Part shown: piece after piece, positions 22,563-43,258 of the stretch
Position numbering within the stretch: the stretch's first letter is position 1
Layout: every line of letters begins with the position of its first letter
Source of the DNA: a virus
Taxonomy: Duplodnaviria; Caudoviricetes
Direction: 5' to 3' (one strand)
Virus record (IMG/VR): IMGVR_UViG_3300048672_000503
Coordinates: 1 to 58,070 of that record
Length of the DNA stretch: 58,070 nucleotides
Made by a program: the position numbers and the translations under genes
Notes under the pieces: generated by a model
Database searches by the model: none
Seen by the model: the letters and a program-made list of their open reading frames with translations, nothing else
What the model was told of the DNA's origin: nothing

Positions 22563-22566
22563 TTCA

Positions 22567-22655
22567 TTCACCTTTGTATTAGTTTTGAGTTTTATATTAG
22601 TCCATATTTCTCTGGGCTTGAAACATATTATAGTGTTTTTTTACAAAAAGTCTAC
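22567..22655 (-). promoter_or_regulatory. Promoter-hairpin-RBS cassette copy 2 (diverged)
   Basis: Same RBS and AAAACT tract; TATAAT retained; shorter hairpin. Confidence 0.7.
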
Positions 22656-26250: not shown

Positions 26251-29006
26251 TTTAACACCTTATACTTAGTTATAAATAAATACCTTATTCCATTCCAAAA
26301 TCTGGCACGAACCATCAAATGAGAACCAACAGGCACATTTTCAACAATGTCTATGCCGATTCTGAAATAATCTTTGCGTCCTATTCTTCCACCTATTATT
26401 CCTGTGTCATCCCTTAGTCGGATGTCAAGATATTCCAACTGTCCTGTTTCAATTTTACCATCACGTTTCTTAATTTCATTTTCTTCATTTGCATTTCTTG
26501 GATTTTTATGCACCAATTCACCGATGACCACACGTTCTTCGCCGTGTGGTATGCCTTCTTTTATATCACCAATTTTCCAAACTTTACCAACAATGCCATT
26601 GGCTTCTGGATTATCATAAATGTGTTTGTATAAAGAATCGAATGGAAAGATATCACCATATATTCTTTCACATTTTTCTATTGTCTCTAATTGCTTTTTA
26701 GTCAGCCTGTTGGCATCCCTATCTGCCATCAATTTTTCTGCTTTCTTTTCACCAATCCCTTTCAGAGCTGTAAAACCACCAACAAGTTTGCCATCACTAA
26801 CACCCCAATTAATTTTTGATAATTTGATATCAAATGCTATGTGCTCAACACCTTCCTTATGGAGTTCACGAAGCAATAACAATGCGCTTTCTTCATCTTT
26901 GGCATTCCGCAAATTGGCTGCAGCAAACTCTAGCAAATGGTTTGCTTTCAAATAAGCACACCAATAACTGATTACAGCATAAGAATAGGTATGTGCTTTG
27001 TTCATGGCCCATGAGCCCATTCCATTTATCATCCTCCAGATGGCATCAGCTTCAACTTCTGCCATCCCTTGTGACGTTGCCCCTGCTATGAATTTCACTC
27101 TATGCTTCTCAAAATATTCATTGCCCATTGATTTAGACATTGCTTTTCTAATTGCGGTTGTTTCCTCCCAGTTAAACAAACCTATGTTTTTAACAATTGC
27201 CAATGTTTGCTCTTGATAAACAGGCAAACCATAGGTGTCTGCCATGTATTCCTCAACCAAAGGATGCATTGATGAAAATGTTTTGCCATTCTTTCTTTCG
27301 ATGTATTTTTGTGTTATGCCTCCACCAAATGGCCCAGGCCGTGCTAAAGCAGACACAGCATCAAATTCATTTAATGTTTCAAATTTGATGCTTTCAGCAA
27401 CAGATCGCACGGATTCACCTTCAAATTGGAAAATTCCACAATAACGGTGATTATTCATCAGTTGATAAGTTTTTTCATCATCAAATTTTAAATCATACCA
27501 ATTGATACCAACATCTGAATCCTCCAAAATTGCTAGGGTTCTGAGCCCAAGCACATCAATTTTCAGCAGACCAAGCCATTCAGCAGCTGTCTTTTCAATA
27601 TGAGCTATTCCCAGATCATCAACAACACAATAGTTTGTTATTTCTTCATTACAAATTAATAAGCCAGCAGCATGAACCCCAGTATGTGAAGCATGACCTT
27701 CAATGACTTGTGATAATTTTGCTGCTGGATAGTTTTTTATAAAGTCTTGTCCTGGCTTTGTTGTTGTGAATGTATCTTCAAGACAATTGGTTACACGCTC
27801 ATCAGCTGATGATCGCTCAATCATCGCCACTTTTACAGCAGCAGTGGAAGATGCCGGAATATTCAAGGCTTTGCAAACGGTTATTAAAGTGCTTTTTGGT
27901 TTGAATTTGCTTATTGTCCCAATGTGCGCAACATTATTTGATCCATACTTTTCAGCCATGTATTCAAAAATGATGTGCCGTTTGTTGTCTGGAAAATCTA
28001 AGTCAATATCAGGCAAGTCTGATCTGCTAACATCGATGAATCTTTCAAAATACAACTTTGGTGGAATTGGATCAATTTCTGTGATTCTTGTTAAATAGCA
28101 CACCAACGATCCAGCTGCTGAACCACGTGATGGCCCAACAAGCACATTATTGTTTTTAGCATAATGAACCATATCTGCAACAACAATAAAATATGAATCA
28201 AAATCCTTTGACCTGATTAGACCAATCTCATAATTCAAACGTTCTTCATATTCATCAGTCCAAATTCCATCCATCTTTCTGTATTTGATGCCATCACGAC
28301 ATAGTCTCTCAAGATCACCTTCAGCACGGATCATTGGCGCAATTGAAATTTCCAAGCCTTCACAATCTTGAGCAATATTTTCAGCAACATCTTGATTATC
28401 AAGCTCATCAAGAACATATTGTGGAGTCATCTTTTTGCCAGACTTGCTTATGAGTTGAAACACATCAGCATCTTCAGGTTTGCAAAATGCATTATCCGAA
28501 ACATCCACAACAGCAAGTTTGTATTTTGCAGCAATCTTTTTCTTTTGATTATTCAAAATTCTGCTTGCAGGTGAAAGATCAATGATGGCACCAACTTTTT
28601 GCAAAAACTCACCATCAGTTATGTCACCAGCAAACTTGAATATATTATCTGACATCCCAATGACTTGGTGCTTATAAATACGCGGTATTTTGCCTGTCCT
28701 TAATGATATTTTTTGGCCATAGGCTTTCGATATGGCTTTATACAGTTCATTTAATCCTGGCTTATTTTTGGCTAAAAACCACATCTTTTGAGGGATATCA
28801 TCATCAGACACTGTGATTTCAATTCCAAGCATGGGTTGAATGCCAGCTGCTTTGCACGCTTTGTAGAATGGAATGTGACCCCAAGTATCACCATCAACTA
28901 TGCCAGCATGAGTACAGCCAATTTCTTTAAGTCTTGCTATGACATTTTTAATTGGGGCATATGTCTGACCAAAGCTATACTCAGTTTTAATTTTTAATTG
29001 TATCAT
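26247..29006 (-). CDS. dnaE: DNA polymerase III alpha subunit (family C)
   Basis: GPSRGSAAGSL, FERFID..R.DLPDIDLDF, GVHAAG, KIDVLGL, GIFQFE, YQEQ, NKAH..SY. Confidence 0.95.
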   Translation of the reverse strand: MIQLKIKTEYSFGQTYAPIKNVIARLKEIGCTHAGIVDGDTWGHIPFYKACKAAGIQPMLGIEITVSDDDIPQKMWFLAKNKPGLNELYKAISKAYGQKISLRTGKIPRIYKHQVIGMSDNIFKFAGDITDGEFLQKVGAIIDLSPASRILNNQKKKIAAKYKLAVVDVSDNAFCKPEDADVFQLISKSGKKMTPQYVLDELDNQDVAENIAQDCEGLEISIAPMIRAEGDLERLCRDGIKYRKMDGIWTDEYEERLNYEIGLIRSKDFDSYFIVVADMVHYAKNNNVLVGPSRGSAAGSLVCYLTRITEIDPIPPKLYFERFIDVSRSDLPDIDLDFPDNKRHIIFEYMAEKYGSNNVAHIGTISKFKPKSTLITVCKALNIPASSTAAVKVAMIERSSADERVTNCLEDTFTTTKPGQDFIKNYPAAKLSQVIEGHASHTGVHAAGLLICNEEITNYCVVDDLGIAHIEKTAAEWLGLLKIDVLGLRTLAILEDSDVGINWYDLKFDDEKTYQLMNNHRYCGIFQFEGESVRSVAESIKFETLNEFDAVSALARPGPFGGGITQKYIERKNGKTFSSMHPLVEEYMADTYGLPVYQEQTLAIVKNIGLFNWEETTAIRKAMSKSMGNEYFEKHRVKFIAGATSQGMAEVEADAIWRMINGMGSWAMNKAHTYSYAVISYWCAYLKANHLLEFAAANLRNAKDEESALLLLRELHKEGVEHIAFDIKLSKINWGVSDGKLVGGFTALKGIGEKKAEKLMADRDANRLTKKQLETIEKCERIYGDIFPFDSLYKHIYDNPEANGIVGKVWKIGDIKEGIPHGEERVVIGELVHKNPRNANEENEIKKRDGKIETGQLEYLDIRLRDDTGIIGGRIGRKDYFRIGIDIVENVPVGSHLMVRARFWNGIRYLFITKYKVLK

Positions 29007-29187
29007 CTTTATTCCAAAATGGGTGAACTACTCTTTCATAAACTTTCTTTTCATTCGCCTTGGCTTTTGTTACTTCTACAACAGGCTTATTTTTACAATA
29101 GCACCTATAGTATCTGGAGTGCCAGCCAAGCTCACAAGGTCTGCATTTAATCCAATTATTCTCTGTCATGACGTTTGTCAACTCCAT
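28987..29187 (-). CDS. Small Cys-containing hypothetical protein
   Basis: CxxC and CxC; overlaps neighbours. Confidence 0.45.
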   Translation of the reverse strand: MELTNVMTENNWIKCRPCELGWHSRYYRCYCKNKPVVEVTKAKANEKKVYERVVHPFWNKDDTIKN

Positions 29188-29344
29188 GCCACTCTATGTG
29201 TCTTCCAGTTATTGTTTCAGTTTTCAATTGCATTATCTCACCACAAACCTTGCACCTGAGTTGTGTTCTTGACTTGAATTTCCATTTGTGTTTATCACAA
29301 GGCACTTTGGCATGGACAAAGTTTTTTAAAAAATTGAATAACAT
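29156..29344 (-). CDS. Small zinc-finger-like protein
   Basis: C.KH.W........CKVCG. Confidence 0.55.
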   Translation of the reverse strand: MLFNFLKNFVHAKVPCDKHKWKFKSRTQLRCKVCGEIMQLKTETITGRHIEWHGVDKRHDRE

Positions 29345-29346
29345 GG

Positions 29347-29484
29347 TTATTGCCCCAATATTGATTGTTCACTTGATATTGGTGCTCTGTTTGATTCTAT
29401 GACAGAGCACACAACAAATACAGCAAACAAAAAGATAGCAAAACAGAAAAATATTGCAATTGAATCTAATAATTCTTTTAACAT
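29347..29484 (-). CDS. Small single-TM protein (45 aa)
   Basis: Manual translation MLKELLDSIAIFFCFAIFLFAVFVVCSV.. Confidence 0.45.
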   Translation of the reverse strand: MLKELLDSIAIFFCFAIFLFAVFVVCSVIESNRAPISSEQSILGQ

Positions 29485-29496
29485 AAATAATTTCTA

Positions 29497-29760
29497 TTAT
29501 CGTCTATCAATTATTAATCCGGTTTTATTCAACCAGAATTCAAAAGCAGATTCAACTCTTGCCTTTGCTAATTCCTCAGTTTCAAAGCAGCCAAGAGCAC
29601 TTTTTAAACCTGGAAGTCTTGTTGTTGCTCTATATTTATTTGTTGAATCCTTGGACGCAAAACTATCCCATACAACAGAACCAATTATGGTTGTGCCATG
29701 ATAGCCATCACTGCCATTAGAGAATCTTGCTGTTTGTCTAGCCCAATTTTAAATGCTCAT
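29497..29760 (-). pseudogene. 87-codon gene with in-frame TAA at codon 4
   Basis: GGAGA RBS then ATG AGC ATT TAA AAT TGG.., open in the same frame to TAA 29497-29499. Confidence 0.6.
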
Positions 29761-29801
29761 TTTGTCTTCTCCAAAAAATAGACATCCATGTCCATTGATG
29801 A

Positions 29802-30485
29802 TTAATTTAATTTAATATTTTGATTGCCAGAGATCTGGTTGTTTAGGCTTATTCCATTGCCATAATTCACTCCTGCCATAAATTCATTGAGATTTTGTTT
29901 TGTATCCTTCCTTTTTGCAGCAACAAGAGAAACACCACATTGCTTTTTTACAAAATCCATTGCCTCTTCTATTTCAGTTTTATGAAGATTTATTACTGCT
30001 AATGCTTGGCTTGATGAAAATTCAGATTCATCAACTTTATTAATTATCTCATTAACTCTGTAAGCAATTCTTTGTGCTGCACCATTTGAGAAACTTCTGC
30101 CATAGTTACCTTTTATGCGTTCCTTTTGAATTGACTTTAAAACATAATTTGTAATTAAAACAGCAGTTGTTGCATTTGCTTCTTTTCCAATTATGCAAAA
30201 TGTTGCTTTTGTTTTTGTTTTTTGTGATTTTTGTGAATAGCAGAAGCAAAAAAATAATTTTGCAACATAATTTGAAACGATTGCGCACCATCTTTCATCA
30301 TAATAATCATTTTCAACCTTCACACAAGAAACATCATTATCTTTAACATCAACCATCGAAAGATTATGCTTGGCTAAAAGGCCATGAGCCATACGCATGG
30401 CATTATCTCGTTCACCTTCAGTTGCGCCTTCATTTGTACCAAGTGCAATGAGTTTTTTGACTTTGGTTATGATTGCTGTTTCCAC
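29802..30485 (-). CDS. DUF2786-domain protein
   Basis: KVKKLIALG....EGERDNAMRMAHGLLAKHNL N-terminus. Confidence 0.75.
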   Translation of the reverse strand: METAIITKVKKLIALGTNEGATEGERDNAMRMAHGLLAKHNLSMVDVKDNDVSCVKVENDYYDERWCAIVSNYVAKLFFCFCYSQKSQKTKTKATFCIIGKEANATTAVLITNYVLKSIQKERIKGNYGRSFSNGAAQRIAYRVNEIINKVDESEFSSSQALAVINLHKTEIEEAMDFVKKQCGVSLVAAKRKDTKQNLNEFMAGVNYGNGISLNNQISGNQNIKLN

Positions 30486-30640
30486 TATAGTTCTCCAATC
30501 AAAGCAACTACTCTTTTTAAAGCAACTTCTTTATTAGCAAAGACAGTCACCTTAAAAAATATTCCTTTATTTAACTTATCAGCTAGAGAATTATTCAATT
30601 TTGATAATTCAACAACGTTCATATTTTCTAAGTTTTTCAT
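30485..30640 (-). CDS. Small hypothetical protein (51 aa)
   Basis: Manual translation MKNLENMNVVELSKLNNSLADKL..; directly after cassette RBS. Confidence 0.65.
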   Translation of the reverse strand: MKNLENMNVVELSKLNNSLADKLNKGIFFKVTVFANKEVALKRVVALIGEL

Positions 30641-30644
30641 GATA

Positions 30645-30745
30645 TTCACCTTTATATTAGTTTTGAGTTTTAGTTTAGTCCGGTAAAAGTTCTTACCGGA
30701 CTTGAAACAAATTATAATGCTTTTTTACAAAAAGTAAAGTTTTTT
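30645..30745 (-). promoter_or_regulatory. Promoter-hairpin-RBS cassette copy 4
   Basis: -35 TTTACT 30738-30733, -10 TATAAT 30716-30711, GTCCGGTAA/TTACCGGAC stem. Confidence 0.9.
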
Positions 30746-31283
30746 ATTTCAATTTTTCAAAAAAACTATCAGCAATTAAAATTTCATACAATGCCATAGC
30801 ATCATCCATAGCACGATGTGTCTGTGCCAGTGGCTTTCCAATGATATGTTCATACAATGCTTTCATAGTTGGACGTTTGCCAAACAGTGGTGTGTATTCC
30901 TGAGCGGTGCATATTATTTCAGGTGGCCATGGAAAGTCTAAGCACTCACACCGCTCAAGATCAAACCGGATTAAGCTGGTGTCAAATGGAGCATTGTGTG
31001 CAATAAAAATATCAACATCTTCAAAAACTGCTTTTATTTCATCAAGCAATTCACAAAAGCTATGTTCATGCTCAAGCTGCTCTGTTTTAATTCCAGTGAT
31101 TTTTGTAATGACTGGATCAAGCGGTAAATTGCCTGGATTAATAAGCCAGTTGTGTTTATCAAGAACTTGCTTTCCATCAGTAATCACAACCCCAAGTTCA
31201 ATTATTCTAGGCTGTTTATCAATTCCCGCCAGTTCGGCCAGTGTCAATCCTGTTGTTTCTGTGTCAACTATTGCTATTTTCAT
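30744..31283 (-). CDS. DEDDh 3'-5' exonuclease (Pol III epsilon-like)
   Basis: DTETTGL, AHNAPFD, HRAMDD; GAGGAGG RBS before ATG 31283. Confidence 0.9.
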   Translation of the reverse strand: MKIAIVDTETTGLTLAELAGIDKQPRIIELGVVITDGKQVLDKHNWLINPGNLPLDPVITKITGIKTEQLEHEHSFCELLDEIKAVFEDVDIFIAHNAPFDTSLIRFDLERCECLDFPWPPEIICTAQEYTPLFGKRPTMKALYEHIIGKPLAQTHRAMDDAMALYEILIADSFFEKLK

Positions 31284-31419
31284 TGGCTTTAACCTCCTCA
31301 ATTAAAATCTTGGCTTGATTGATTAGATACCGATTGCCAGATGATTTTGGCTGTGGTTCATAAAGATTGATGATTGCTTTTAGCAACTCAATTGCTTTCT
31401 TCTGCTGTTTATCATTCAT
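31264..31419 (-). CDS. Small hypothetical protein (51 aa)
   Basis: Manual translation MNDKQQKKAIELLKAII..; coupled on both sides. Confidence 0.5.
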   Translation of the reverse strand: MNDKQQKKAIELLKAIINLYEPQPKSSGNRYLINQAKILIEEVKANENSNS

Positions 31420-32522
31420 AGTCTTTTCCAGCCTTTTGATTGTTTTAGTATAACTTGAAAATTTCTTTTCACACCGTCGTGCATATGGTATTTATTGTGA
31501 TCATACCATTCCTGAAGCTCATCATGGATTGTTTTCATGACTTCTTTCTTTTCTTTTTTGTATGATTGTGATTCAGACACTTGTGAATAAAAAACATCCT
31601 TTATGACAACAACACGTTCCATTCCGCGCTGCACAAAAGATTTTAGTTGCTCTTGTGAATTAGCAACAATTGAATGTGGGTATTTTTGCTTGAATATTTT
31701 GTAACATTCTTCTTTGATCAACTCAGTTGAATCATACCTAACATACTCAATGTCAGGCACTTCTTGGCTTATCATAGTTGCAATCTCAGAATATTTGCCT
31801 GTTGCCACCCACATCTGTTTAGTCAACCACTTTAAATCCCAATCACTGACGGTTTGCCTATCACGTTCCAATTTTATGTGCTTTGGCAATATGTTGTAGC
31901 CATATTTCAAACATGTTTTACAGATGAATAGGCTGCCGACATATAAAATTCCTGGTTTGTCAATCAATATATCACCATATGGCGTTTCAATTATTTCACC
32001 AATTTCTTTTTGCATTTGCAAACAAGATTCTTTTATTGATTCAACTTGCAAATTATCTAGTCCATGGATGAAAAACTTCAACCCTTTGTTTTTTACAGTC
32101 AAGTTGCTTTCTTCAACTATCAGAAGCTCATCATTGAACTTCTTGTTGAATTTGAATTTTGGCAGCCAAAGTTTATCGCCATTGTGTATTTCCATAGCAT
32201 GATTAAGCCTGGTGAGCACTAACATTGCTATTTTGTATCCTTCTCCAAAGCTGCCAATTGAATCATCAGAATCATACTTGCTTGTGCTTCCAAGCAAAAG
32301 AGTCTGTGGTGACAAAGTTGTGAACTCTGAGATTATTTTTAAAATAGTTGTAGCACCATCTTTTACAAAAACATACTTGAATGGTGATTCTGAATCAATG
32401 GCATTTTGAATTAATTCACGGACTGCTTCAACAGCACCCCAATGTCTTACATAATCTTTGTTCAAAGATAATTCATATATTTTATCAAACATCTTATTCT
32501 CCAGATGACAAAACAATGCCAT
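31416..32522 (-). CDS. GHKL (Hsp90/MORC-like) ATPase-domain protein
   Basis: EAVRELIQNAID, LLLGSTSK, IGSFGEGYK. Confidence 0.8.
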   Translation of the reverse strand: MALFCHLENKMFDKIYELSLNKDYVRHWGAVEAVRELIQNAIDSESPFKYVFVKDGATTILKIISEFTTLSPQTLLLGSTSKYDSDDSIGSFGEGYKIAMLVLTRLNHAMEIHNGDKLWLPKFKFNKKFNDELLIVEESNLTVKNKGLKFFIHGLDNLQVESIKESCLQMQKEIGEIIETPYGDILIDKPGILYVGSLFICKTCLKYGYNILPKHIKLERDRQTVSDWDLKWLTKQMWVATGKYSEIATMISQEVPDIEYVRYDSTELIKEECYKIFKQKYPHSIVANSQEQLKSFVQRGMERVVVIKDVFYSQVSESQSYKKEKKEVMKTIHDELQEWYDHNKYHMHDGVKRNFQVILKQSKGWKRL

Positions 32523-33024: not shown

Positions 33025-33471
33025 TTATTTGCCTGTATGGCCTAAGCCACCCATACCCCGCTCAGAATCGCTTAATTCATCAGATTCTATGAACTCTATT
33101 GCATCGAATTTGATGATCATAGCTTGGGCTATTCTATCACCTTTTTTCACTGTAAGTGGCTTCACACCAACACCAGCATCCCTGCGCAGCTTAATAAATA
33201 ACTCATTGCGATAGCCTGAATCAATTATTCCAACACAATTAGACAATCGCACCGCGTTGCTGAAGCCTTGCCCACTTCTACTAAAAACAAGCATAACATA
33301 TCCTTCTGGAACTTCAAATGCCAATCCAGTTCCCAGTCCATCAGTATGGCCTGGTGTTGACATATAATACTCTGTATTTCCATCATAGTGAATATCAAAG
33401 CAAGCATCACCTGGCTTGGCATAAGTCGGTATCAATGCCGTTTCAGTCAGTCGTTTTATTTTGACTTTCAC
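33025..33471 (-). CDS. dut: Trimeric dUTPase
   Basis: ACFDI, RSG, GIIDSGYR, GDRIAQ, RG.GG.GHTG motifs. Confidence 0.95.
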   Translation of the reverse strand: MKVKIKRLTETALIPTYAKPGDACFDIHYDGNTEYYMSTPGHTDGLGTGLAFEVPEGYVMLVFSRSGQGFSNAVRLSNCVGIIDSGYRNELFIKLRRDAGVGVKPLTVKKGDRIAQAMIIKFDAIEFIESDELSDSERGMGGLGHTGK

Positions 33472-34004
33472 TTCTCTATCCTCACGATGAACTTAACATC
33501 AACACCAAGGATGGACTTAGTGTCAAAAATCACATAGTTGAACTTGCGACCATTCTCAACCAAGAATGGGTTTGTATGACTTTGGGTGAACACTTCTTGT
33601 GCAACACCAATTCCACGTTCTTTGAAAAATTCACGCCACTCAATCAATTCTTCAGCCAATACATGAACACCAAGATGTGTAACTGAATTGTCGCGGTGAT
33701 CAAAATCATCCTCCAACCAGTTTGGCCCAGATGTGTAATTCAATATTTCAAACTCACGTCCTTTAAATGCATTGTAGTTAAAGGACAAGTTGGCCGTGCT
33801 TTGCCCAGGATAGCCAAACACATCACCTTTGGCAACCACTGTATCGTCAACCCAGCCATCAAAGCCCATTGCATTTAGCAGCTCTTTTGCTTTTGCTGGA
33901 TCACGAGGGTTGATAGCTATTTGTTCAATCTGGAATCTTAATGGTTTTTTCATTTGCTTGGTCTCTTGTTTGTTAAAGAATATTTTGAAAAATTTAAAGT
34001 CCAT
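33468..34004 (-). CDS. VOC / glyoxalase-fold protein (methylmalonyl-CoA epimerase-like)
   Basis: IEQIAI..., EFEIL, VTHLGVHV, YVIFDT...LGV..KFI pattern. Confidence 0.6.
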   Translation of the reverse strand: MDFKFFKIFFNKQETKQMKKPLRFQIEQIAINPRDPAKAKELLNAMGFDGWVDDTVVAKGDVFGYPGQSTANLSFNYNAFKGREFEILNYTSGPNWLEDDFDHRDNSVTHLGVHVLAEELIEWREFFKERGIGVAQEVFTQSHTNPFLVENGRKFNYVIFDTKSILGVDVKFIVRIEK

Positions 34005-34671
34005 AGGGAATTATGCACCCAGTCAGTGCTTTGTGGTGTGCCTTGTCTTGAAGCAAAAAGCTGATGAATTCAGCAACTGAATTCGGATCAGTTTCTTCAC
34101 CGGCCAATATGCCTGCAAGCTGATACCGTTGTGCTTCTTCCATTGACCAACCACGCGTATGAACAACTTGTTTATCAATTGAGAATGACATCTCAGTTCC
34201 GGCAAGTTTATTTGGGCTGATTCCAAATACAGTGATGCCGTGTTTTTTGGTCAATTCTCTGGCAAGTTGTCTTGTCATGATTTCAGCAGCACCTTTGCTT
34301 GCATTGTACGCCAAGCTGCAAGTCATTGGCATATGACTGGCATTGGAAACAATATTCAAGATGGTGCCTTTTGTCTTTATCAACTCAGGCAGCAGTTCTT
34401 TGGACATCATATAAATCCCTTTGGCATTGACGTCAATAACTTTGTCCCATTGCTCAACATCCACATCCTCCAGCCAATTTATGATGTTGACAGCCGCACA
34501 ATTGATAAGCACATCCACATTGCTTATGTCCAAGCCATCAAACCTTGGATTGCGAACATCATAGCCATCTTTGATGTCATAGCCTATGACTTCATGTCCT
34601 GCATTTATCAACGCATTTGCTATACACAAACCCAAACCTGATTTGCTTCCTGTTATTAATATTTTGCTCAT
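33994..34671 (-). CDS. Short-chain dehydrogenase/reductase
   Basis: ITGSKSGLG, DVLINCA, YNASK catalytic motif. Confidence 0.92.
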   Translation of the reverse strand: MSKILITGSKSGLGLCIANALINAGHEVIGYDIKDGYDVRNPRFDGLDISNVDVLINCAAVNIINWLEDVDVEQWDKVIDVNAKGIYMMSKELLPELIKTKGTILNIVSNASHMPMTCSLAYNASKGAAEIMTRQLARELTKKHGITVFGISPNKLAGTEMSFSIDKQVVHTRGWSMEEAQRYQLAGILAGEETDPNSVAEFISFLLQDKAHHKALTGCIIPYGL

Positions 34672-34687
34672 TGTTATTCCTTGTTTG

Positions 34688-35608
34688 TTAAAAAAATGAT
34701 TTTTCGTTTGCGATTGAATCACAAACATTATTTATCTCGCTCAAACGCTTAACACAGCACGTTTGGCAAATTTTTGGAAGGTCACAAAATTCTCTTTCTG
34801 AATATTTGGTGACTTTGTCCCATATTTGAAGCCATGTGTTTTCAAATATATTGCCAAGTCCAATGGTTTGTGGAGAACTTCTTGTGTCACCAGCTGTAAC
34901 ACAACAAGGATATACAGTGCCATCTGAATCAACATATAGTTGATAAAACACAGCACTGCAATGCTTGAATGGTAGGACGTCACGCTCTGTTTTGTCTTTG
35001 TGATTTGTATCCTGCATAGAATCAGGATACATGTATCTGCTGTCAACATTGGTGATGCCTTTGGCATTTGCCCATTTTATGATTTTAGGCAATTCATCTT
35101 TGTTGTAATCGCTAATGGTAATGCCAAGTTGTACATTAACACCTGCTTCAAGCATGTCATCAATGCAATGCAGCACTTTTGACAGTGGTGTTTTGCCGCG
35201 TATTTTTGCATAAACTTCTGGATTGATTGAATCAAGACTCACTCTTATCCATTCTGCCATCTTCAACAGCTTTATGTCTATTGATGTTGGCACATAACCA
35301 GTTATAGTGCACCCAAAGGCAACATCATTGTCAATGTGCCATTCCATCACCTTGTTGAAATCAGGATATGCCATTGGATCACCACCTGAATAGCATATTG
35401 ATTCTGGTTTATTTGGCAATGATTCTAAAAAACCAAGCCACTTTCCAACATCCATCTTTTTTTGATCACGATTTGGATGTCCACATCCAATGCACCGATT
35501 GAAGCATGAATCAGTCAACGCGGCTTGAATTGATATTGGTGTTAGTCTGATTCCACCAACTATTTTGTGATGGTATTTTGTGATTTTAATTGCTCTTTGA
35601 TTTTCCAT
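34688..35608 (-). CDS. Radical SAM protein with SPASM/twitch domain
   Basis: CFNRCIGC (CxxxCxxC), SGGDP, VSLDS, C....YVDSDG.VYPCC..GNI..C..C. Confidence 0.92.
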   Translation of the reverse strand: MENQRAIKITKYHHKIVGGIRLTPISIQAALTDSCFNRCIGCGHPNRDQKKMDVGKWLGFLESLPNKPESICYSGGDPMAYPDFNKVMEWHIDNDVAFGCTITGYVPTSIDIKLLKMAEWIRVSLDSINPEVYAKIRGKTPLSKVLHCIDDMLEAGVNVQLGITISDYNKDELPKIIKWANAKGITNVDSRYMYPDSMQDTNHKDKTERDVLPFKHCSAVFYQLYVDSDGTVYPCCVTAGDTRSSPQTIGLGNIFENTWLQIWDKVTKYSEREFCDLPKICQTCCVKRLSEINNVCDSIANEKSFF

Positions 35609-35614
35609 ATTGTT

Positions 35615-36403
35615 TCAATACCAAAATTTTGATTTCATCCAAACATATCCAGGTCTATGGATACGCACCCAATTCAATATTTGACTTTCACTCAAATTGC
35701 CATCATGTAAACCATGATCCTCATCACCATATTCTTTTCTACCAATTTTTTTAAGATCATGGTGATGAGTTGGATTATTAAATTGTTTTGCCATGTGATA
35801 ACCATGAAGATTGAACCACAACCCTGCTGCACTTTCTTCATATCCACCATGCAATTTTAAAACATCATCATGAAATAATTTACCATCAAAAGCATTTTTG
35901 AATATTAGTCCTCTTGATGTTGATGCAACAGAATGTGGAAGGCTTTCCCTTATTTCTTCTTTGTACGCATGGCCACCAAAGAAAGACACACAAGACACAA
36001 GACCACAATCGTCATTCCCATCTAAATGTCTTAATGCTTGCACATATCTCTGTCCTGATGTTTTTGGATATAATTTTGTGCCATTTCTAAATTCCATGTT
36101 GTCATCAACAAACATATAATATTTTGACTTTTTGCTCATATTTGCAGCAATTTGTCTTAAATGTGATATTCTGCATGGCGATTCTTGCTCCATCTCTTTG
36201 AAATTCAATCCAATATCAAATTTAAGCAAAATTTCTTTTGCTCTTTCTGATGCATTTAAATCAAATGATCCCTGTCCAACTATATTGAACTCAACATCAC
36301 AATGCTCTCTGACATCAATGAGATGCTGCAAAGAATCATTTTTCAATATGTGATTGAATGCAATCAATTTATTTGTTGGCAGTAATAATGTTAACATAAT
36401 CAA
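35615..36403 (-). CDS. Putative GT-A fold glycosyltransferase
   Basis: LLLPT start, YYMFVDDN acidic motif, GGYEE. Confidence 0.55.
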   Translation of the reverse strand: MIMLTLLLPTNKLIAFNHILKNDSLQHLIDVREHCDVEFNIVGQGSFDLNASERAKEILLKFDIGLNFKEMEQESPCRISHLRQIAANMSKKSKYYMFVDDNMEFRNGTKLYPKTSGQRYVQALRHLDGNDDCGLVSCVSFFGGHAYKEEIRESLPHSVASTSRGLIFKNAFDGKLFHDDVLKLHGGYEESAAGLWFNLHGYHMAKQFNNPTHHHDLKKIGRKEYGDEDHGLHDGNLSESQILNWVRIHRPGYVWMKSKFWY

Positions 36404-36762
36404 TCCTGTTTTATTTTTGAAATTAATATTGACTCCATTATTGCAGAATAAACCCCATTATCATGAATTGAATCTTGATGTGTCAAACCACTGCTTGCGA
36501 ACCTTGCAATTTTTACAAGAATCAATTCAAATATTCTCCATTCATATGATAGAATCAACTCCTGTGAAATACCATTTGGAAATAAAATTTTAATCATTTC
36601 AGTTATTTTTTTATATGCATCATCATGAATTGCATTTCTTGATGCAAATGTTTTTGCCATTGATTCAAGCACATCAGCAGCAGTTGTTTTTGTCTCTTTT
36701 TGTTCACACCCAACCAACAAACAAGCATCAGGTGTTTTGCATTTTTCACATATTTCTAACAT
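36400..36762 (-). CDS. All-helical nucleotide-modification-associated domain protein (DUF1599/DUF6378-like)
   Basis: A.TF..RN..., VKIARF, HQDSIHD.GVY motif. Confidence 0.55.
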   Translation of the reverse strand: MLEICEKCKTPDACLLVGCEQKETKTTAADVLESMAKTFASRNAIHDDAYKKITEMIKILFPNGISQELILSYEWRIFELILVKIARFASSGLTHQDSIHDNGVYSAIMESILISKIKQD

Positions 36763-36773
36763 TTACCCTCCAA

Positions 36774-37226
36774 TCAATATTTATTAATTCTTAAAACTTC
36801 AGCCTTTATTCCATTGTTGATGTACATATCAACAATATCTTGTCTGTCATCATAAGCAATGATATCATCAAGTTGAATTCCCTCCAATTGCCATTCTATC
36901 ATTTCATCCAATAGCATGTCAAGTTTTACATCAAGTGATGGTCTATGATCACCGGCCTTCCTCATGCACAATCTATCAACTTCAATGCCATTCCTTCTCA
37001 TCCATTTTTCAGTTATTATTCTAAACTTATCAGGCCGTGCAGTGAAAATTATCAAGGCACCAGCTCCATCGATGATGTGTCCATTTACAAATTCATCGAA
37101 GATGCTATTAAGATGATAGTTGAGAAACCGCTCATCCAAATTAGCAATATGGTGCTTTATCGTTGGTTTGCGCCAACCATCATTGCTTATGCAATTATCA
37201 AGATCAAGTATTGTTACTTTCATCAC
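36774..37226 (-). CDS. HAD phosphatase (PNKP 3'-phosphatase-like)
   Basis: ILDLDNCI, FTARP, L.MR..GDHRP...K, YDDR. Confidence 0.85.
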   Translation of the reverse strand: MMKVTILDLDNCISNDGWRKPTIKHHIANLDERFLNYHLNSIFDEFVNGHIIDGAGALIIFTARPDKFRIITEKWMRRNGIEVDRLCMRKAGDHRPSLDVKLDMLLDEMIEWQLEGIQLDDIIAYDDRQDIVDMYINNGIKAEVLRINKY

Positions 37227-37984
37227 ATTGCCTTGCCATTAATGGCGATAGGTGCTGCTTCATGACGGATTGACCAAAACAATTCTTTGGCTTTATCCTT
37301 AACGGCTGTGTTATCCATTTCAGGCAAGTACACTGGGCATTCTTTTTTGCCATAGCGAGGGAAAGCACAAGTTCCGTGTGCCACACAATACACTTGCAAC
37401 ATGTCTTCTGTCCAAGGGTGAAGTTTTATCACTTCTTCACGCATGGAGCGGAAGACATCCTGATATTCACCCTGGGTTCTGGTACAAAGCCTTAATTTGG
37501 CACTATCCATCAGCGTGCGCAAATTAAATTTGGCATAGATGTTTGTTGTGATATTTGTTGGCAGCTCACCACGGGCATCCTGAGCGGGACAACCAGCATC
37601 AATAAGATCACCATAAGATTTTAAAGCAGCTTCAATTCCTTTGTTCCAAATTTCCAGCCATTCGTCGTTTTCTTGAATGCTTGGTGGCACTTCAACGTGT
37701 TGATTTCTTGCATCAACCACTCGCATTGCTTGCTGCTGATATGAACCAGTTCTGGTGCGCACAAATTGGTGGGTGAATGCTCTTGTTACATCTTCAACCT
37801 TGAATATGTAATCTACAAATTCAAATGATGTTTTGATGGTGTCCATCATATAACTTAAATGCTCTGCTTTCTTTTCTTCAGACCAATCAGATGGCTCATC
37901 ACGGTCATTAGTCAATCTGACATTTTTAGTCTCCAAAAGCATGTTTAGTGCATCTGGTGTATGTCTTACTATTGAAACTTTCAC
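37223..37984 (-). CDS. ThyX-family flavin-dependent enzyme with non-canonical active-site motif
   Basis: FEFV.Y.F.V..VTRAFTHQFVRTR..SY.QQ.MR, QDARG.LP, NLR.L, RLC.R.Q.E; GTG 37984 follows GGAG. Confidence 0.85.
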   Translation of the reverse strand: MKVSIVRHTPDALNMLLETKNVRLTNDRDEPSDWSEEKKAEHLSYMMDTIKTSFEFVDYIFKVEDVTRAFTHQFVRTRTGSYQQQAMRVVDARNQHVEVPPSIQENDEWLEIWNKGIEAALKSYGDLIDAGCPAQDARGELPTNITTNIYAKFNLRTLMDSAKLRLCTRTQGEYQDVFRSMREEVIKLHPWTEDMLQVYCVAHGTCAFPRYGKKECPVYLPEMDNTAVKDKAKELFWSIRHEAAPIAINGKAM

Positions 37985-38144: not shown

Positions 38145-38282
38145 TTTGTTCACCTTTAATTTTGATAATGAATTTTATTTCACCAGGATGTCACCACATT
38201 GGTTGGTTGACATCCCTGCTCTGTTAATTTGTTTGAGCATTGGTGCTGTATAATAAAGCCATCCTTGGCAATATCAATCCTA

Positions 38283-39281
38283 TTAAATTAAATCTAACAA
38301 TTTATTTGCTACATTGGTTTTGAAATTAGCGCGGTCACCAAACTGGGCGCGGTCAAACTGTTTACTGCGATCTACACCCTTGCTTGGTGATTCATGATCC
38401 ATATACTGGGTGACTGCATTTACAAGACCCCAGGCAGTGTTTTTCGCGCTTATTAGTTGTGATCCAAGACCTTGGCCATTGTATAAATCCATGATGGCTT
38501 TGAGCTCTTTTGAATTTTCAACCATTTGCATTGGAAGCATTGAGTTACCATCTGCATCAAGCCAATTATTTTTCATTTCAGAAGCAACAATTTGAATGGC
38601 CTCTTCACGATCAAGCTTGATTGTTGTTAAAGTTTGAGCAGATTCGATGAAAGAATCCCAAGCATCAGCTGCCAAACCAAGATCAACTTTAACAGCATCT
38701 GAATTAAATGCTGCCATATGAGGGATTTTGATTTGAGCTCTTTGGCCATTATTGCCAATTGCCATCCTTAAAGTATTGTTACAAACAACTCTAACTGATG
38801 TAAAGTGAGCAGAAGTTGCCATTGAACCATCCATTGAGGTGCCAAGCAACAAGTAAGGCTTAATTTCATCCACACCAGCTATCTTAACAGATTTGCCTGT
38901 TTTGGCTAATGCCCAAAGTTTTTTGCCGCCATATAGGCACCCCGCTGTTTCCATTTGAAAGCCAGCATCTGAAGTCAATGAAGTGAAGAACTCCAGGATT
39001 TCATCAGGCTGAACAATTTTGTATTTTGAAGAAACAATGGAAAGTGGAGCCAATGTATCATTGCGATACAGAACATTTTTTGAATTTTGACGGAATGTCT
39101 TACCACCTGCTTGGAAAATCACTGGGGTGACTTCTGCCATCCAATCCATTCCTGCTTCAACTTTCCATTCATCAATAGTTGATTCAGCAGTCAAAGCCTG
39201 TCCAAGACCATGCCAAGCTTTTTCACCGACATAAGCCATTGCTGCTTGACCGTTTGATTTTGTATCTAATTCATGAGCCAT
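38283..39281 (-). CDS. DUF932-family phage/plasmid protein
   Basis: MAHEL, AWHGLG, ETAG.L.GG, TSVRVVCNNTL, TAWGLVNAVTQY.DH. Confidence 0.9.
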   Translation of the reverse strand: MAHELDTKSNGQAAMAYVGEKAWHGLGQALTAESTIDEWKVEAGMDWMAEVTPVIFQAGGKTFRQNSKNVLYRNDTLAPLSIVSSKYKIVQPDEILEFFTSLTSDAGFQMETAGCLYGGKKLWALAKTGKSVKIAGVDEIKPYLLLGTSMDGSMATSAHFTSVRVVCNNTLRMAIGNNGQRAQIKIPHMAAFNSDAVKVDLGLAADAWDSFIESAQTLTTIKLDREEAIQIVASEMKNNWLDADGNSMLPMQMVENSKELKAIMDLYNGQGLGSQLISAKNTAWGLVNAVTQYMDHESPSKGVDRSKQFDRAQFGDRANFKTNVANKLLDLI

Positions 39282-39285
39282 GATA

Positions 39286-39385
39286 TTCACCTTTATATTA
39301 GTTTTGAGTTTTAGTTTAGTCCGGTAAAAGTTCTTACCTGACTTGAAACAAATTATAATGCTTTTTTACAAAAAGTAAAGTTTTT
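39286..39385 (-). promoter_or_regulatory. Promoter-hairpin-RBS cassette copy 5
   Basis: Differs from copy 4 by one base in the stem. Confidence 0.9.
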
Positions 39386-39395
39386 TTTACTTTAT

Positions 39396-40253
39396 TTATA
39401 CGTTTTCAATTTCACTTTCTATGTTGCCTATTTCTTCAACTTCTTGCTTTGCTGCCTTTTCTTTTCTTGCTTCTGCTTTTGCAGCCGCTTTTGCAGCTCT
39501 TTCATCTGCTTTTGCAGCCGCTTTTGCAGCCTTTTCTTCAACTGTTGCAGGCACTTTGGTTGACTTTTCAACTTCAAAAGTTTCAAAATGATAGACTTTT
39601 TCAGGTTGATCATCGGTTGCTGCAACAACATAGTCCAATGTTTTGGATTCACTTTTATTCAAGTTGCCACGAAAAGCAGGGAATTTTGACATTGGCAAAC
39701 CATAGTTTTCGAATGCTTTGCCAACTGATGAAAATTCAGCAGTTTCATCACCAATTCTTACTTTAGCACCCCATCTTTTTAAACGAGCTGCTCTTGTTTC
39801 TGGAGCAGACCATGTCATTGATAGATTCATTTTCTTTTCTTCATTTGACAATTCAGCTTTTGGAGCCTTTTCAGCTTTTGGAGCCTTTTCAGCTTTTGGA
39901 GCCTTTTCAGCTTTTGGAGCCTTTGGCCTGTCCATTGCAGAGCCGATTAAATCATCTTCAGCATCATCAGCTTTTTCTTTGTCTGTTAATTCTGGTTCTG
40001 GTTCATCACCTGATAATGGCAGATCAACTGATTGCTCAGCAGCATCTTCTTCACCCAGAACTTCATTCAATAAATCAAGTTGGTCTTGTTCTTCTTTGGT
40101 CATTTCATTTTCCTTGGTTTGTCTTGCTTTCAAAACTGATTTTTCACCAGCGGCTCTTGAAGCAAATTTGGTTGTTTGTTTTCTTGTCAGCAAATTGTAT
40201 TCTTCAAGAAGTTCTTTTGTTGACATGGTTGTTATTTCTTTTTGTGTTGACAT
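39396..40253 (-). CDS. Lys/Ala/Glu-rich protein with KAPKAE repeats (possible DNA-binding)
   Basis: Four 18-bp repeats near 39854-39925; histone-H1-like C-terminal KAAAKA. Confidence 0.7.
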   Translation of the reverse strand: MSTQKEITTMSTKELLEEYNLLTRKQTTKFASRAAGEKSVLKARQTKENEMTKEEQDQLDLLNEVLGEEDAAEQSVDLPLSGDEPEPELTDKEKADDAEDDLIGSAMDRPKAPKAEKAPKAEKAPKAEKAPKAELSNEEKKMNLSMTWSAPETRAARLKRWGAKVRIGDETAEFSSVGKAFENYGLPMSKFPAFRGNLNKSESKTLDYVVAATDDQPEKVYHFETFEVEKSTKVPATVEEKAAKAAAKADERAAKAAAKAEARKEKAAKQEVEEIGNIESEIENV

Positions 40254-40264
40254 CACGTTCACCA

Positions 40265-40352
40265 TTAGTTTTGAGTTTTAGTTTAGTCCGGTAAAAAGTT
40301 CTCACCGGATTTGAAACAAATTATAATGCTTTTTTACAAAAAGTAAAGTTTT
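40265..40352 (-). promoter_or_regulatory. Promoter-hairpin-RBS cassette copy 6
   Basis: Same -35/-10, hairpin and AAAACT tract. Confidence 0.85.
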
Positions 40353-40580
40353 TTATTTCATCAAAGTAACATTTTTATTACGATCAATTGAAATTATTTT
40401 ATTTGTGACCATTTTCCCAATTGATGTATCTATCTCAGCTGTAATATTAACAAGCAAAAGTCTACGAATATCACCTATGGTTGCATCACCTTCACGCTCC
40501 AAGATTGCCTTTATGTGGCCTTGCCACTTTAAATAATTGAAATAACTCAATCTGTGCTTATCAGCTGGATCACTTAACAT
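40353..40580 (-). CDS. Small hypothetical protein, possible winged helix
   Basis: 75 aa, helix pattern then terminal beta hairpin. Confidence 0.45.
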   Translation of the reverse strand: MLSDPADKHRLSYFNYLKWQGHIKAILEREGDATIGDIRRLLLVNITAEIDTSIGKMVTNKIISIDRNKNVTLMK

Positions 40581-41484
40581 TGTTCTTCACCATTGTCCTT
40601 TCATAGCTTGATGAATTGATCATCTTTTTGATGATGCTTATGTCTTTCAGCACGTCATCTAGCAGAACTTGGCGCCATGTTGCAAACCTACCAAGTGAGT
40701 AAACATTATGCTCATGTGTTGCTTTGAACATAAATTCTTTACGCCAATGGTCGTCGATTGGTGATATTTTGCCAAATTTCAATTCAGAATTACCCAATGG
40801 TGTTAAATTTGTGACATTGATGTCGAAAGCATCAAACATGTCTTCATCATCTTCATCAAATTTCACATATTCAGCTGTTAAAATGTCTCCAACTATGGAC
40901 GCCCTGTATAATCCATATAGTTCACTTGGGAAATAGATTGTTTGGTGAACATTGCAATCTTGTATTTTCCATCTTTTCACAAAGACTTTGCTTGATGCAA
41001 ATTCAGGAATGTCTGTTATACTCAGCATCCTTGCAAGAACTGGCATCGGTACTGTGCTTATTGTTGGTGAGTCTGACACAATACAATCATTTATATCAAA
41101 CTTTGTTTTCCAAGCTATCCTGCTTGAGCACCGCTCAATGAGTTGTTCATGAAAGTCGATTGGTGCTATCCAGCGTTTGCAAGTGTCTATGTTCCAGATG
41201 CTTCTGTCTTGAATTGCTCCAATGACTTTCTGGCTGTATTCATTACAAATTTTTGGATTTGGTGTGTGGAATCTGCCATCCTTATATATGGCTTTGTGAA
41301 CCATAACTTCTTTAAAATCAATTCCAACGGCATCACCAACACCAGGTGATCGAAAGCGCAGCAATGCTTCATGCTTATTAAATTGATCTTTGCTTTGTGC
41401 TTCTATGATAACACTATCTTGGAAGTGCGTGCTAGCTGCCAATAGACCTGCCATGCCAGCCCCAACTATCAATGTTTTTTTCAT
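40570..41484 (-). CDS. FAD-dependent oxidoreductase, UDP-galactopyranose mutase-like
   Basis: IVGAGMAGL Rossmann motif, ISTVP, C-terminal SLGRFATWR. Confidence 0.7.
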   Translation of the reverse strand: MKKTLIVGAGMAGLLAASTHFQDSVIIEAQSKDQFNKHEALLRFRSPGVGDAVGIDFKEVMVHKAIYKDGRFHTPNPKICNEYSQKVIGAIQDRSIWNIDTCKRWIAPIDFHEQLIERCSSRIAWKTKFDINDCIVSDSPTISTVPMPVLARMLSITDIPEFASSKVFVKRWKIQDCNVHQTIYFPSELYGLYRASIVGDILTAEYVKFDEDDEDMFDAFDINVTNLTPLGNSELKFGKISPIDDHWRKEFMFKATHEHNVYSLGRFATWRQVLLDDVLKDISIIKKMINSSSYERTMVKNNVK

Positions 41485-41997: not shown

Positions 41998-42714
41998 ATG
42001 AAAACAAAATTGATTAAATTTACAATTGGTGGTAGCCATAAATTGAGTTGTGCTTGCTCTGACCTCAGAGGTGATTGCTCTAATCTCATAGGTGATTGCT
42101 CTTATCTCAGAGGTGATTGCTCTGACCTCAGAGGTGATTGCTCTTATCTCAGAGGTAATTGCTCTGGTCTGAGAGGTGATTGCTCTGACCTCAGAGGTGA
42201 TTGCTCTGACCTCAGAGGTGATTGCTCTGGTATCATAGGTGATTGCTCTGACCTCAGAGGTGATTGCTCTGACCTCAGAGGCAATTGCTCTTATCTCAGA
42301 GGTGATTGCTCTGACCTCAGAGGTGATTGCTCTAATCTCAGAGGTGATTGCTCTTATCTCAGAGGTAATTGCTCTGGTCTGAGAGGTGATTGCTCTGACC
42401 TCAGAGGTGATTGCTCTTATCTCAGAGGTAATTGCTCTGGTCTGAGAGGTGATTGCTCTGACCTCAGAGGTGATTGCTCTGGTATCATAGGTGATTGCTC
42501 TGACCTCAGAGGTGATTGCTCTAATCTCATAGGTGATTGCTCTGGCCTCAGAGGTGATTGCTCTGGTCTGAGGGGTAATTGCTCTGGTCTGAGAGGTGAT
42601 TGCTCTGGTATCATAGGTGATTGCTCTGACCTCAGAGGTGATTTTGATTTGTGTGACATTTCAGATAGTGAAAGAGAAAATGGCATCAACATAATTGATT
42701 TGATAGAGATATAA
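41998..42714 (+). CDS. Heptapeptide-repeat protein (CSDLRGD)x28
   Basis: 21-bp tandem repeat in frame. Confidence 0.85.
   Translation: MKTKLIKFTIGGSHKLSCACSDLRGDCSNLIGDCSYLRGDCSDLRGDCSYLRGNCSGLRGDCSDLRGDCSDLRGDCSGIIGDCSDLRGDCSDLRGNCSYLRGDCSDLRGDCSNLRGDCSYLRGNCSGLRGDCSDLRGDCSYLRGNCSGLRGDCSDLRGDCSGIIGDCSDLRGDCSNLIGDCSGLRGDCSGLRGNCSGLRGDCSGIIGDCSDLRGDFDLCDISDSERENGINIIDLIEI
42055..42642 (+). repeat. 21-bp tandem repeat, 28 units
   Basis: Consensus TGCTCTGACCTCAGAGGTGAT; 588 bp. Confidence 0.95.
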
Positions 42715-43222: not shown

Positions 43223-43258
43223 AACTTAAAACTTAAAACTTAAATAAAAGAGAATATC

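Follow-up and report, generated by a model that had tools for sequence, protein, structure and literature searches.

A ThyX-anchored gene row in the replication operon of a freshwater phage as a candidate, lineage-variable pyrimidine modification pathway

Organization of the gene row

We analysed the complete IMG/VR virus record IMGVR_UViG_3300048672_000503 (58,070 bp, hereafter the window; CheckV completeness 100%) and, within it, a row of eight minus-strand genes at positions 33025 to 37984 that joins a variant of the thymidylate synthase ThyX to a phosphatase, a glycosyltransferase and several tailoring enzymes. The DNA was traced, as contigs, to two freshwater metagenome assemblies, and no RNA sample was listed. 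The row belongs to the replication module, a run of minus-strand genes from approximately 21 kb to 41.5 kb. An earlier note on this DNA had proposed that the row encodes a new DNA hypermodification pathway. The eight open reading frames (ORFs) that it named are all where it had placed them, and the tight coupling that it described is real, as adjacent genes overlap by 4–41 bp or sit 6–11 bp apart. The interior of the row contains, on the minus strand, no terminator-like site with more than five stem pairs. The same note had put a flavoprotein gene resembling UDP-galactopyranose mutase (UGM) 2.6 kb upstream, and we found it to start 2,586 bp upstream of the ThyX start. It had also credited the phage with its own DnaE and DnaQ, which we located at 26247–29006 and 30744–31301. 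This pair (26247–31301, minus strand) lies downstream of the row on the same strand, and its orthologues flank the module in related loci.

Core enzymes

The first gene of the row (37223–37984, minus strand) encodes a ThyX homologue of a clade with a variant RTR motif (Pfam Thy1, E = 3.9e-36, 125.1 bits against a cut-off of 24.8; TIGR02170, 102.7 bits against 87.9). Its reading frame is open to 38029, but the likely start is a GTG at 37984, with GGAG 7 nt upstream, and its homologues begin at the equivalent position. Aligned to Thermotoga ThyX, the protein departs from the signature RHRxxS...S.RY, with RTR in place of RHR, alanine in place of Ser88 and valine in place of Tyr91, in agreement with the variant status given to it in the earlier note. 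It keeps Gln75, Arg78, Arg80, Arg90, Arg147 and Arg174, and the conserved arginines are what we take to be residues of the dUMP site. Of 11 aligned homologues, 9 carry the RTR motif, among them those of Wifcevirus, Kylevirus and Pbunavirus, while RHR is retained in two distant metagenomic members (L020 and L022; L numbers designate the loci that we compared). RTR is therefore the mark of a large clade of phages and is not peculiar to this cluster. The protein has a C-terminal extension whose four cysteines (C182, C215, C221 and C231) are invariant across all 11 homologues.

The second gene (36774–37226, minus strand) overlaps the ThyX stop by 4 bp and encodes a PNKP-type HAD phosphatase (Pfam HAD_PNKP, 34.5 bits with a cut-off of 27.6; phrog_415, 2.7e-18), with HAD motif I, DLDNC, at N-terminal residues 8–12. 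It is followed by a gene for a small helical DUF6378-like domain (36400–36762, minus strand), for which the Pfam match is weak and below cut-off (DUF6378, E = 0.0067) and the PHROG match is stronger (phrog_4889, 1.5e-17). Many relatives have the two fused, with DUF6378 at the C-terminus of the HAD protein, among them loci L010, L011 and L013 and the phages Mansfield, Kyle and Pbunavirus.

The upstream flavoprotein (40570–41484, minus strand) is a compact, 304-aa putative member of the UGM family of flavin adenine dinucleotide proteins, shorter than UGMs (approximately 360–510 aa), against which it obtains its best scores. It has no Pfam GLF match. Its YFP..YRA and GRF..W motifs align with residues 314–331 and 432–451 of Aspergillus fumigatus UGM, at an insignificant E value of 0.8, and fall at the positions of Y317 and R327 in that enzyme. 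In most relatives this gene lies directly upstream of ThyX, and the two overlap or abut in most loci. A DUF932 protein gene (38283–39290, minus strand; 2.5e-58) separates them in the window and in L004, whereas they are directly adjacent in most other loci.

Glycosyltransferase

The fourth gene (35615–36403, minus strand) encodes a glycosyltransferase of GT-A fold from an unnamed, mostly viral family. The protein has no Pfam, PHROG or NCBIfam match, and none of 40 family members matched any glycosyltransferase Pfam model, GT2 included, at E 0.01. The assignment comes from an AlphaFold2 model built from 40 sequences (pLDDT 94). Foldseek matched this model to the PDB structures of RmlT, SpsA, TarS, TarP and AvpGT at about 1e-7, with a probability of 1.00 for RmlT, SpsA, TarS and TarP, and the TM score reached 0.74 to GT2 clusters of the Atlas and 0.82 for the best BFVD model. 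Across the 40 family sequences, conservation of R83 and D100-D101 is 90% or higher, with the window reading DDN. The modelled protein combines an acidic DxD-type motif with a GT-A Rossmann-like fold. An exhaustive search of 1.84 billion representatives returned 154 relatives of this protein, whereas a word-indexed search gave two.

Loci L004 and L005 have the gene order ThyX, HAD, DUF6378, glycosyltransferase and DnaQ, and lack the three accessory enzymes described below (short-chain dehydrogenase/reductase, vicinal oxygen chelate and radical SAM proteins). A dCTP deaminase-like gene lies nearby, in L004 between DnaQ and DnaE. Identities of this phage to the window are 62% for DnaE, 65% for ThyX and 33% for the glycosyltransferase. 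In L006, the genes next to a relative encode an aldo-keto reductase, a second radical SAM protein and a Dam methylase. In Streptococcus phage GXN1, a relative stands between a family A polymerase fused to uracil-DNA glycosylase on one side and, on the other, two annotated glycosyltransferases and a YfbR-like 5'-deoxynucleotidase. We conclude that this glycosyltransferase family sits in DNA-metabolism neighbourhoods elsewhere too.

Accessory enzymes and dUTPase

The next gene (34688–35608, minus strand) encodes a radical S-adenosylmethionine (SAM) enzyme with a C-terminal SPASM domain, both domains being over the Pfam cut-off (Radical_SAM, 53.4 bits; SPASM, 41.4 bits). All 18 aligned members retain the CxxxCxxC cysteines (C35, C39 and C42), together with C217, C235, C281 and C285. 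Homologues are numerous in metagenomes (69, with 45–100% identity, many on contigs of 40–60 kb). The enzyme was compared with named radical SAM-SPASM subfamilies (ScmE, spiro-SPASM, MoaA, MftC, PqqE, anSME-like and others), and among the best 25 of 33 NCBIfam matches none reached its subfamily cut-off, the highest being ScmE at 60.3 against 400 bits. No PDB sequence matched at E 0.01. PADLOC pVip profiles matched the radical SAM core too weakly to be treated as membership.

Two further enzymes follow. A classical short-chain dehydrogenase/reductase (SDR; 33994–34728, minus strand; Pfam adh_short, 1.1e-32) carries the TGxxxGxG and YxxxK motifs, as TGSKSGLG and YNASK in the translation, and its true start is probably a methionine at about 34671. 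It has 453 matches to SDR proteins of the PDB (best 1e-17), the best being of the FabG, DhbA, glucose dehydrogenase and acetoin reductase types, and is 48% identical to the SDR of phages Mansfield and Kyle. The vicinal oxygen chelate (VOC) protein (33468–34004, minus strand) belongs to a phage-specific family of glyoxalase fold. It has no Pfam match, and its identity derives from an Atlas structure with a TM score of 0.74 to Glyoxalase_4 clusters (0.69–0.75 over the Glyoxalase_4, Glyoxalase and Glyoxalase_3 clusters) and the paired beta-alpha-beta-beta-beta fold. A three-sequence profile gave a weak match to PDB entry 3gm5 (E = 0.0044).

The last gene of the row (33025–33471, minus strand) encodes a trimeric-type dUTPase (NCBIfam PRK00601, 109.2 bits, above the cut-off of 103; phrog_135, 1.5e-47). 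The earlier note had counted it in the cluster, a view that we do not retain, as tblastn found a dUTPase in none of 16 related loci. It is probably an ordinary enzyme outside the recurring module.

Distribution in cultured and metagenomic phages

We searched 50,697 phage records for the proteins of the row. The UGM-like gene is present in 362 of them (292 from Pseudomonas phages), VOC in 55 and the glycosyltransferase in two, while the radical SAM enzyme, which is confined to uncultured relatives, was found in none by tblastn; SDR and VOC both occur in 55 cultured phage records. At the DNA level, the 5-kb row gave only short matches of 60–80% identity, each covering 3–4% of the query. Escherichia phage Mansfield (a Wifcevirus) and Pantoea phage Kyle share one order of genes, namely UGM-like, a small gene, ThyX, the HAD-DUF6378 fusion, SDR, another small gene, VOC, DnaQ and DnaE. 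Pbunavirus phiDCL-PA6 and Ralstonia phage PY059YO380, the latter being the closest cultured relative of the window (DnaE 63% identical), have only the UGM-like gene, ThyX, HAD-DUF6378, DnaQ and DnaE. Among the VOC carriers is an actinophage, Microbacterium phage Ajin, in which genes for a phosphatase, SDR and VOC and one that contains DUF6378 lie close to DnaE and to a GT2 enzyme. On sequence comparison, the UGM-like protein, ThyX-RTR and HAD-DUF6378 are a core common to a phage supergroup (Pbunavirus, Wifcevirus, Kylevirus and XcP1-like phages). The idea of a single novel unit put forward in the earlier note thus holds in part: the genes do recur together, but in layers, since the core also exists in Pbunavirus without SDR, VOC, radical SAM or glycosyltransferase.

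When IMG/VR was scanned with the radical SAM enzyme or the glycosyltransferase as a single protein, nothing matched, and profiles were required. A profile search with the radical SAM enzyme retrieved 13 loci, whose gene content was determined by tblastn. ThyX (RTR or other) and a form of HAD/DUF6378 are present in 13 of 13, figures that are conditional on the presence of the radical SAM enzyme by which the loci were retrieved. In three loci (L020–L022), the latter form is a divergent HAD-helical protein. The UGM-like gene is found in 12 of 13, the exception being L019, whose contig begins a short way upstream of ThyX. In every locus examined, the module lies between the primase/helicase side and DnaQ-DnaE. 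Co-occurrence in related phages was a point on which the earlier note had made its idea depend, and the genes do recur together, always between ThyX and DnaQ/DnaE.

The content of the accessory layer varies among lineages. Five of the 13 loci (L010, L011, L012, L013 and L017) carry SDR and an FkbM-type methyltransferase beside the radical SAM enzyme, the methyltransferase being identified as Pfam PF05050 in the three proteins tested. VOC is present in four of these five, and the contig of the fifth (L013) ends before it. The window has the same set as these loci with the GT-A enzyme in the place of FkbM. FkbM enzymes are typically O-methyltransferases. The alternation of FkbM and glycosyltransferase suggests that lineages share an intermediate bearing a hydroxyl and cap it in different ways. 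A scan of further metagenomes gave 28 loci, eight of them duplicating IMG/VR contigs, in which short contigs have the same neighbours; these add FkbM in L029 and L036 and SDR in L043, L044 and L048.

Four other IMG/VR loci (L014, L015, L016 and L018) have an orphan protein beside the radical SAM enzyme and lack SDR, VOC and FkbM. This orphan of approximately 250 aa, which we call unkA, is encoded directly upstream of the radical SAM gene there and in L039–L046 (e.g., L016:8039-8830). We considered whether it could be a divergent ThyA-like protein and dropped the idea, as it has no Pfam match, no PDB match with a five-sequence profile at E 10, and 19 relatives without Pfam domains.

Comparison with known systems

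The earlier note had not recognized this enzyme combination from any characterized pathway, and our literature searches, subscription-only papers aside, likewise found no matching pathway and no paper on the gene set. The modules of Pbunavirus, Wifcevirus, Kylevirus and XcP1-like phages consist of genuine homologues, arranged in the same order next to DnaQ/DnaE, with identities to the window of 39–46% for ThyX, 36–39% for the UGM-like protein, 48% for SDR and 46–49% for VOC, and they share the RTR motif and the four cysteines of the window ThyX. Their genes are annotated as "UDP-galactopyranose mutase", "thymidylate synthase", "polynucleotide kinase/phosphatase", "SDR" and "glyoxalase". Unlike the window, these cultured modules lack the radical SAM enzyme; Mansfield, Kyle, the Pbunavirus record and PY059YO380 also lack the GT-A enzyme, and the last two lack SDR and VOC as well. 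No dUTPase match was obtained in the compared stretch of each cultured relative, and no functional study of this gene set was found in the literature for the cultured carriers.

Combinatorial hypermodification clusters, including some with a radical SAM enzyme that acts on DNA, have been described for other phages (PMC8989533). The 5-hydroxymethyldeoxyuridine (5-hmdU) systems of phages M6, ViI, PhiW-14 and SP10 resemble the window in that their clusters, located among DNA-metabolism genes, join an enzyme of thymidylate synthase type to tailoring enzymes, including radical SAM and flavin-dependent enzymes, and occur in combinatorial permutations across metagenomic phages (PMC8989533). They differ from it in using a ThyA-family dUMP hydroxymethylase, a 5-HMUDK kinase and aGPT-Pplase and in appending amino acids, and their radical SAM enzyme resembles spore photoproduct lyase and, unlike that of the window, is not a SPASM protein. 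The window genome had no match at E 1 to ThyA-family PF00303 or to aGPT-Pplase3 (PF18746), the two families of these systems for which it was searched (aGPT-Pplase1/2 and 5-HMUDK were not part of that search).

A second point of comparison is provided by phages with glycosylated 5-hydroxycytosine, which combine a thymidylate synthase homologue, a HAD phosphatase, UGM and glycosyltransferases (PMC13326640). In the glycosylated 5-hydroxycytosine and 5-hydroxymethylcytosine systems of RB69, DLP3, RL38J1 and T4, the thymidylate synthase homologue, HAD phosphatase and glycosyltransferases are shared with the window, and in RL38J1 a furanose donor is also provided by a UDP-galactopyranose mutase (PMC13326640). 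In contrast to the window, the synthase homologue of these systems is a flavin-binding, ThyA-type protein acting on dCMP, and the glycosyltransferases listed for them are GT-B-like, with no set of SDR, VOC and radical SAM enzymes. Finally, GT-A DNA glycosyltransferases of phages resemble TarP and JGT, the base J glucosyltransferase of trypanosomes (bioRxiv 10.1101/2023.12.21.572611). Like the window enzyme, these proteins and JGT have a GT-A fold, TarP as a structural neighbour and DNA-modification genes as neighbours (bioRxiv 10.1101/2023.12.21.572611). Unlike in the window, their partners are 5mYOX/TET or ThyS and their motif is R...DDD...EDY/F. The window glycosyltransferase instead reads R83, D100-D101-N102 and an E-E-S segment, in comparison with the published motif. 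"TET-associated glycosyltransferase" models rank 34th and 45th among its BFVD matches (TM 0.46–0.56), and the window genome had no Tet_JBP (PF12851) match at E 1.

The ThyX fold is also used in nucleoside tailoring, since some ThyX homologues yield other products, as does PolB, the UMP C5-methylase of polyoxin biosynthesis. PolB belongs to a bacterial antibiotic cluster, whereas ThyX here belongs to a phage replication module. Judged by its predicted genes, the set is different from each known hypermodification system tested (no ThyA, Tet_JBP or aGPT-Pplase3).

Proposed function and alternatives

The unvarying location between ThyX-HAD and the polymerase genes, the HAD-DUF6378 fusion and the mix-and-match accessory genes fit the published pattern of phage hypermodification clusters. 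We therefore favour, tentatively and at slightly below an even chance, the reading that the row is a lineage-variable pathway for the (hyper)modification of a pyrimidine nucleotide or of DNA within the replication operon. From the gene content we infer a substrate (a pyrimidine nucleotide or DNA), an order of steps, a hydroxyl acceptor and a biological role as follows. A core layer (the UGM-family flavoprotein, ThyX-RTR and HAD with DUF6378) would handle a uridine- or thymidine-type nucleotide, with dUTPase feeding dUMP and keeping dUTP low. An accessory layer (SDR, VOC and radical SAM-SPASM) would build or reshape a side group, on a hydroxyl of which a capping enzyme would act, the GT-A glycosyltransferase here and the FkbM-type O-methyltransferase in sister phages. 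The end product would be a thymidine-replacing or thymidine-derived base with a glycosylated substituent, which the phage DnaE/DnaQ would incorporate or tolerate and which would serve against host nucleases.

Several observations weigh against this proposal. The window ThyX clears the NCBIfam equivalog cut-off for ThyX, and the core ThyX may be a plain dTMP maker. The tailoring of sugars, lipids and peptides also draws on GT-A, SDR, VOC and radical SAM-SPASM enzymes, all of them generic folds. The full recurrence of ThyX and HAD/DUF6378 is conditional, as said, on retrieval by the radical SAM enzyme, and the exact gene combination of the window was seen in no other locus among the IMG/VR and metagenome loci compared. 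The abundance of the UGM-like gene in Pseudomonas phages (292 records) is to be set beside the single Pbunavirus record examined in which ThyX-RTR and HAD-DUF6378 were seen, and the literature yielded no modification report for carriers of the Pbunavirus-type core. Neither this glycosyltransferase family nor Pfam GT2 gave a match in Mansfield, Kyle, phiDCL-PA6 or PY059YO380, and from these four core carriers it follows that the UGM-like enzyme does not generally feed phage glycosyltransferases of these kinds. Palindromes of 4 and 6 bp are under-represented in the window genome, 4-mer palindromes having a mean z of -3.44 compared to +0.22 for non-palindromes, and TGCA being observed 332 times against 496 expected. 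This avoidance suggests continuing exposure to restriction and is weak evidence against a fully protective modification. In L004, a close relative that has the core and the glycosyltransferase, GATC occurs twice against 55 expected and GGCC twice against 20 (L004:1-20792). A 16-kb Wifcevirus segment shows similar palindrome avoidance, and the test therefore discriminates poorly and the argument drawn from it is weak.

Wifcevirus phages carry the core together with SDR and VOC. They resist restriction for unexplained reasons, EcoP1_I being the exception, and their insensitivity extends to the non-restriction defence systems tested (PMC11990801). If it modifies DNA, the module could explain this resistance, which makes the idea testable in culture.

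Could the same genes serve ends other than DNA modification? In the alternative that we take most seriously, although we regard it as somewhat unlikely, the row is a composite: ThyX, dUTPase and HAD-DUF6378 would provide dTMP and pool housekeeping for a fast-replicating lytic phage, and the remaining enzymes would make or alter a nucleotide-sugar or glycan for a non-DNA acceptor (envelope polysaccharide, teichoic acid, lipopolysaccharide or a virion protein). ThyX scores over its curated cut-offs and the dUTPase is canonical, as such a composite would have it; the structures nearest to the glycosyltransferase (RmlT, TarS, TarP and SpsA) are enzymes of wall teichoic acid or polysaccharide; and the flavoprotein most resembles UGM, a sugar-nucleotide enzyme. 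HAD phosphatases, too, serve sugar-phosphate steps, as in phage arabinose pathways (PMC13326640). The persistence of palindrome avoidance in the window genome and the possession of the core alone by the closest cultured relative, PY059YO380, are likewise in line with a composite. Yet no nucleotidyltransferase, sugar kinase or 4,6-dehydratase with which a sugar-nucleotide pathway would begin was found among the minus-strand genes scanned, the accessory genes are always inside the replication operon, from ThyX-HAD to DnaQ-DnaE, even in very distant phages including an actinophage, and the other contexts of the glycosyltransferase family are those of DNA metabolism.

A role in counter-defence, in which the accessory enzymes would act on a free nucleotide-derived molecule (destroying or mimicking an immune signal or antiviral analogue, or making an inhibitor) and leave the phage DNA unchanged, appears improbable to us. 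The radical SAM core does match prokaryotic viperin (26 bits, E 1e-6) and MoaA (E 6e-10), which both use nucleoside triphosphates, but weakly, far below family cut-offs and through the generic radical SAM core only. The module varies as arms-race genes do, and the insensitivity of Wifcevirus spans the non-restriction defences tested (PMC11990801). However, the other seven proteins of the row and the UGM-like flavoprotein have no PADLOC matches, and nothing ties SDR, VOC or GT-A to known immune signals. We consider very improbable that the accessory enzymes supply or recycle folate, pterin or flavin for ThyX, with SDR as an analogue of FolM or pteridine reductase. ThyX and the UGM-like protein are both flavoproteins, and dihydrofolate or pteridine reductases of the SDR family exist, but ThyX does not oxidise tetrahydrofolate, and such a supply leaves no role for the glycosyltransferase or the O-methyltransferase. 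We rejected SDR as a folate recycler, since no pteridine reductase or FolM is among its best 60 of 453 PDB matches or the 25 NCBIfam matches listed.

The pyrimidine modification reading can be taken further, to a specific scheme that we think unlikely but worth stating, a first ThyX-based DNA hypermodification. The co-translated ThyX and UGM, both enzymes that form covalent flavin-N5 adducts, would attach a unit, either carbon or sugar-derived, to C5 of dUMP; radical SAM-SPASM, SDR and VOC would remodel this unit to a hydroxyl-bearing side chain; the cap would be a sugar here and a methyl group in sister phages; and the form with SDR and VOC would account for the genome protection of Wifcevirus. 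The characterized phage pyrimidine hypermodifications that we found start from ThyA-type enzymes or TET/JBP dioxygenases. A ThyX-anchored combinatorial module would be a new entry route, probably with new chemistry (radical SAM-SPASM, VOC, SDR, and a methyl or sugar cap). Simpler forms of the module sit in cultured, therapeutically used groups (Pbunavirus, Wifcevirus, and Serratia and Xanthomonas myoviruses). If their DNA is canonical, the conserved trio of ThyX, UGM-like protein and HAD-DUF6378 in hundreds of phage genomes has another job.

Other features of the replication module

A promoter-like site, TTGATA-16-TATTAT, lies upstream of the row (38250–38277, minus strand), a pattern match with 10 of 12 positions in a consensus scan. 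Three minus-strand copies of another promoter-like pattern, TTTACT-16-TATAAT, precede genes of the replication module (40320–40347, 39352–39379 and 30711–30738), and this pattern may be a phage promoter consensus.

Between the DUF932 gene and the UGM-like gene, 39396–40265 (minus strand) encodes a 289-aa acidic, lysine-rich protein with a run of PKAEKA repeats, which has a weak relative at the equivalent place in Ralstonia phage PY059YO380. Between dUTPase and DnaQ, 31416–32522 (minus strand) encodes a 368-aa protein with no significant Pfam match. Its weak PADLOC match to TmtA (E 1.2e-4) was not counted as membership, and its segment ELIQNAIDS resembles the N-box of GHKL ATPases. At the far end of the replication module, 21969–22571 (minus strand) encodes a pentapeptide-repeat protein (Pfam Pentapeptide, 7.8e-34), a class of proteins that can mimic DNA.

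On the opposite strand, a 238-aa ORF (41998–42714) consists almost entirely of tandem seven-residue units, CS(D/Y/N/G)LRG(D/N). It is followed by two plus-strand genes (42716–44101) whose products match Pfam families named for gp33 (4.3e-29) and gp34 (1.4e-63) of cyanophage Pam3, a pair that is conserved in L004, L018, the Ralstonia phage and Wifcevirus.

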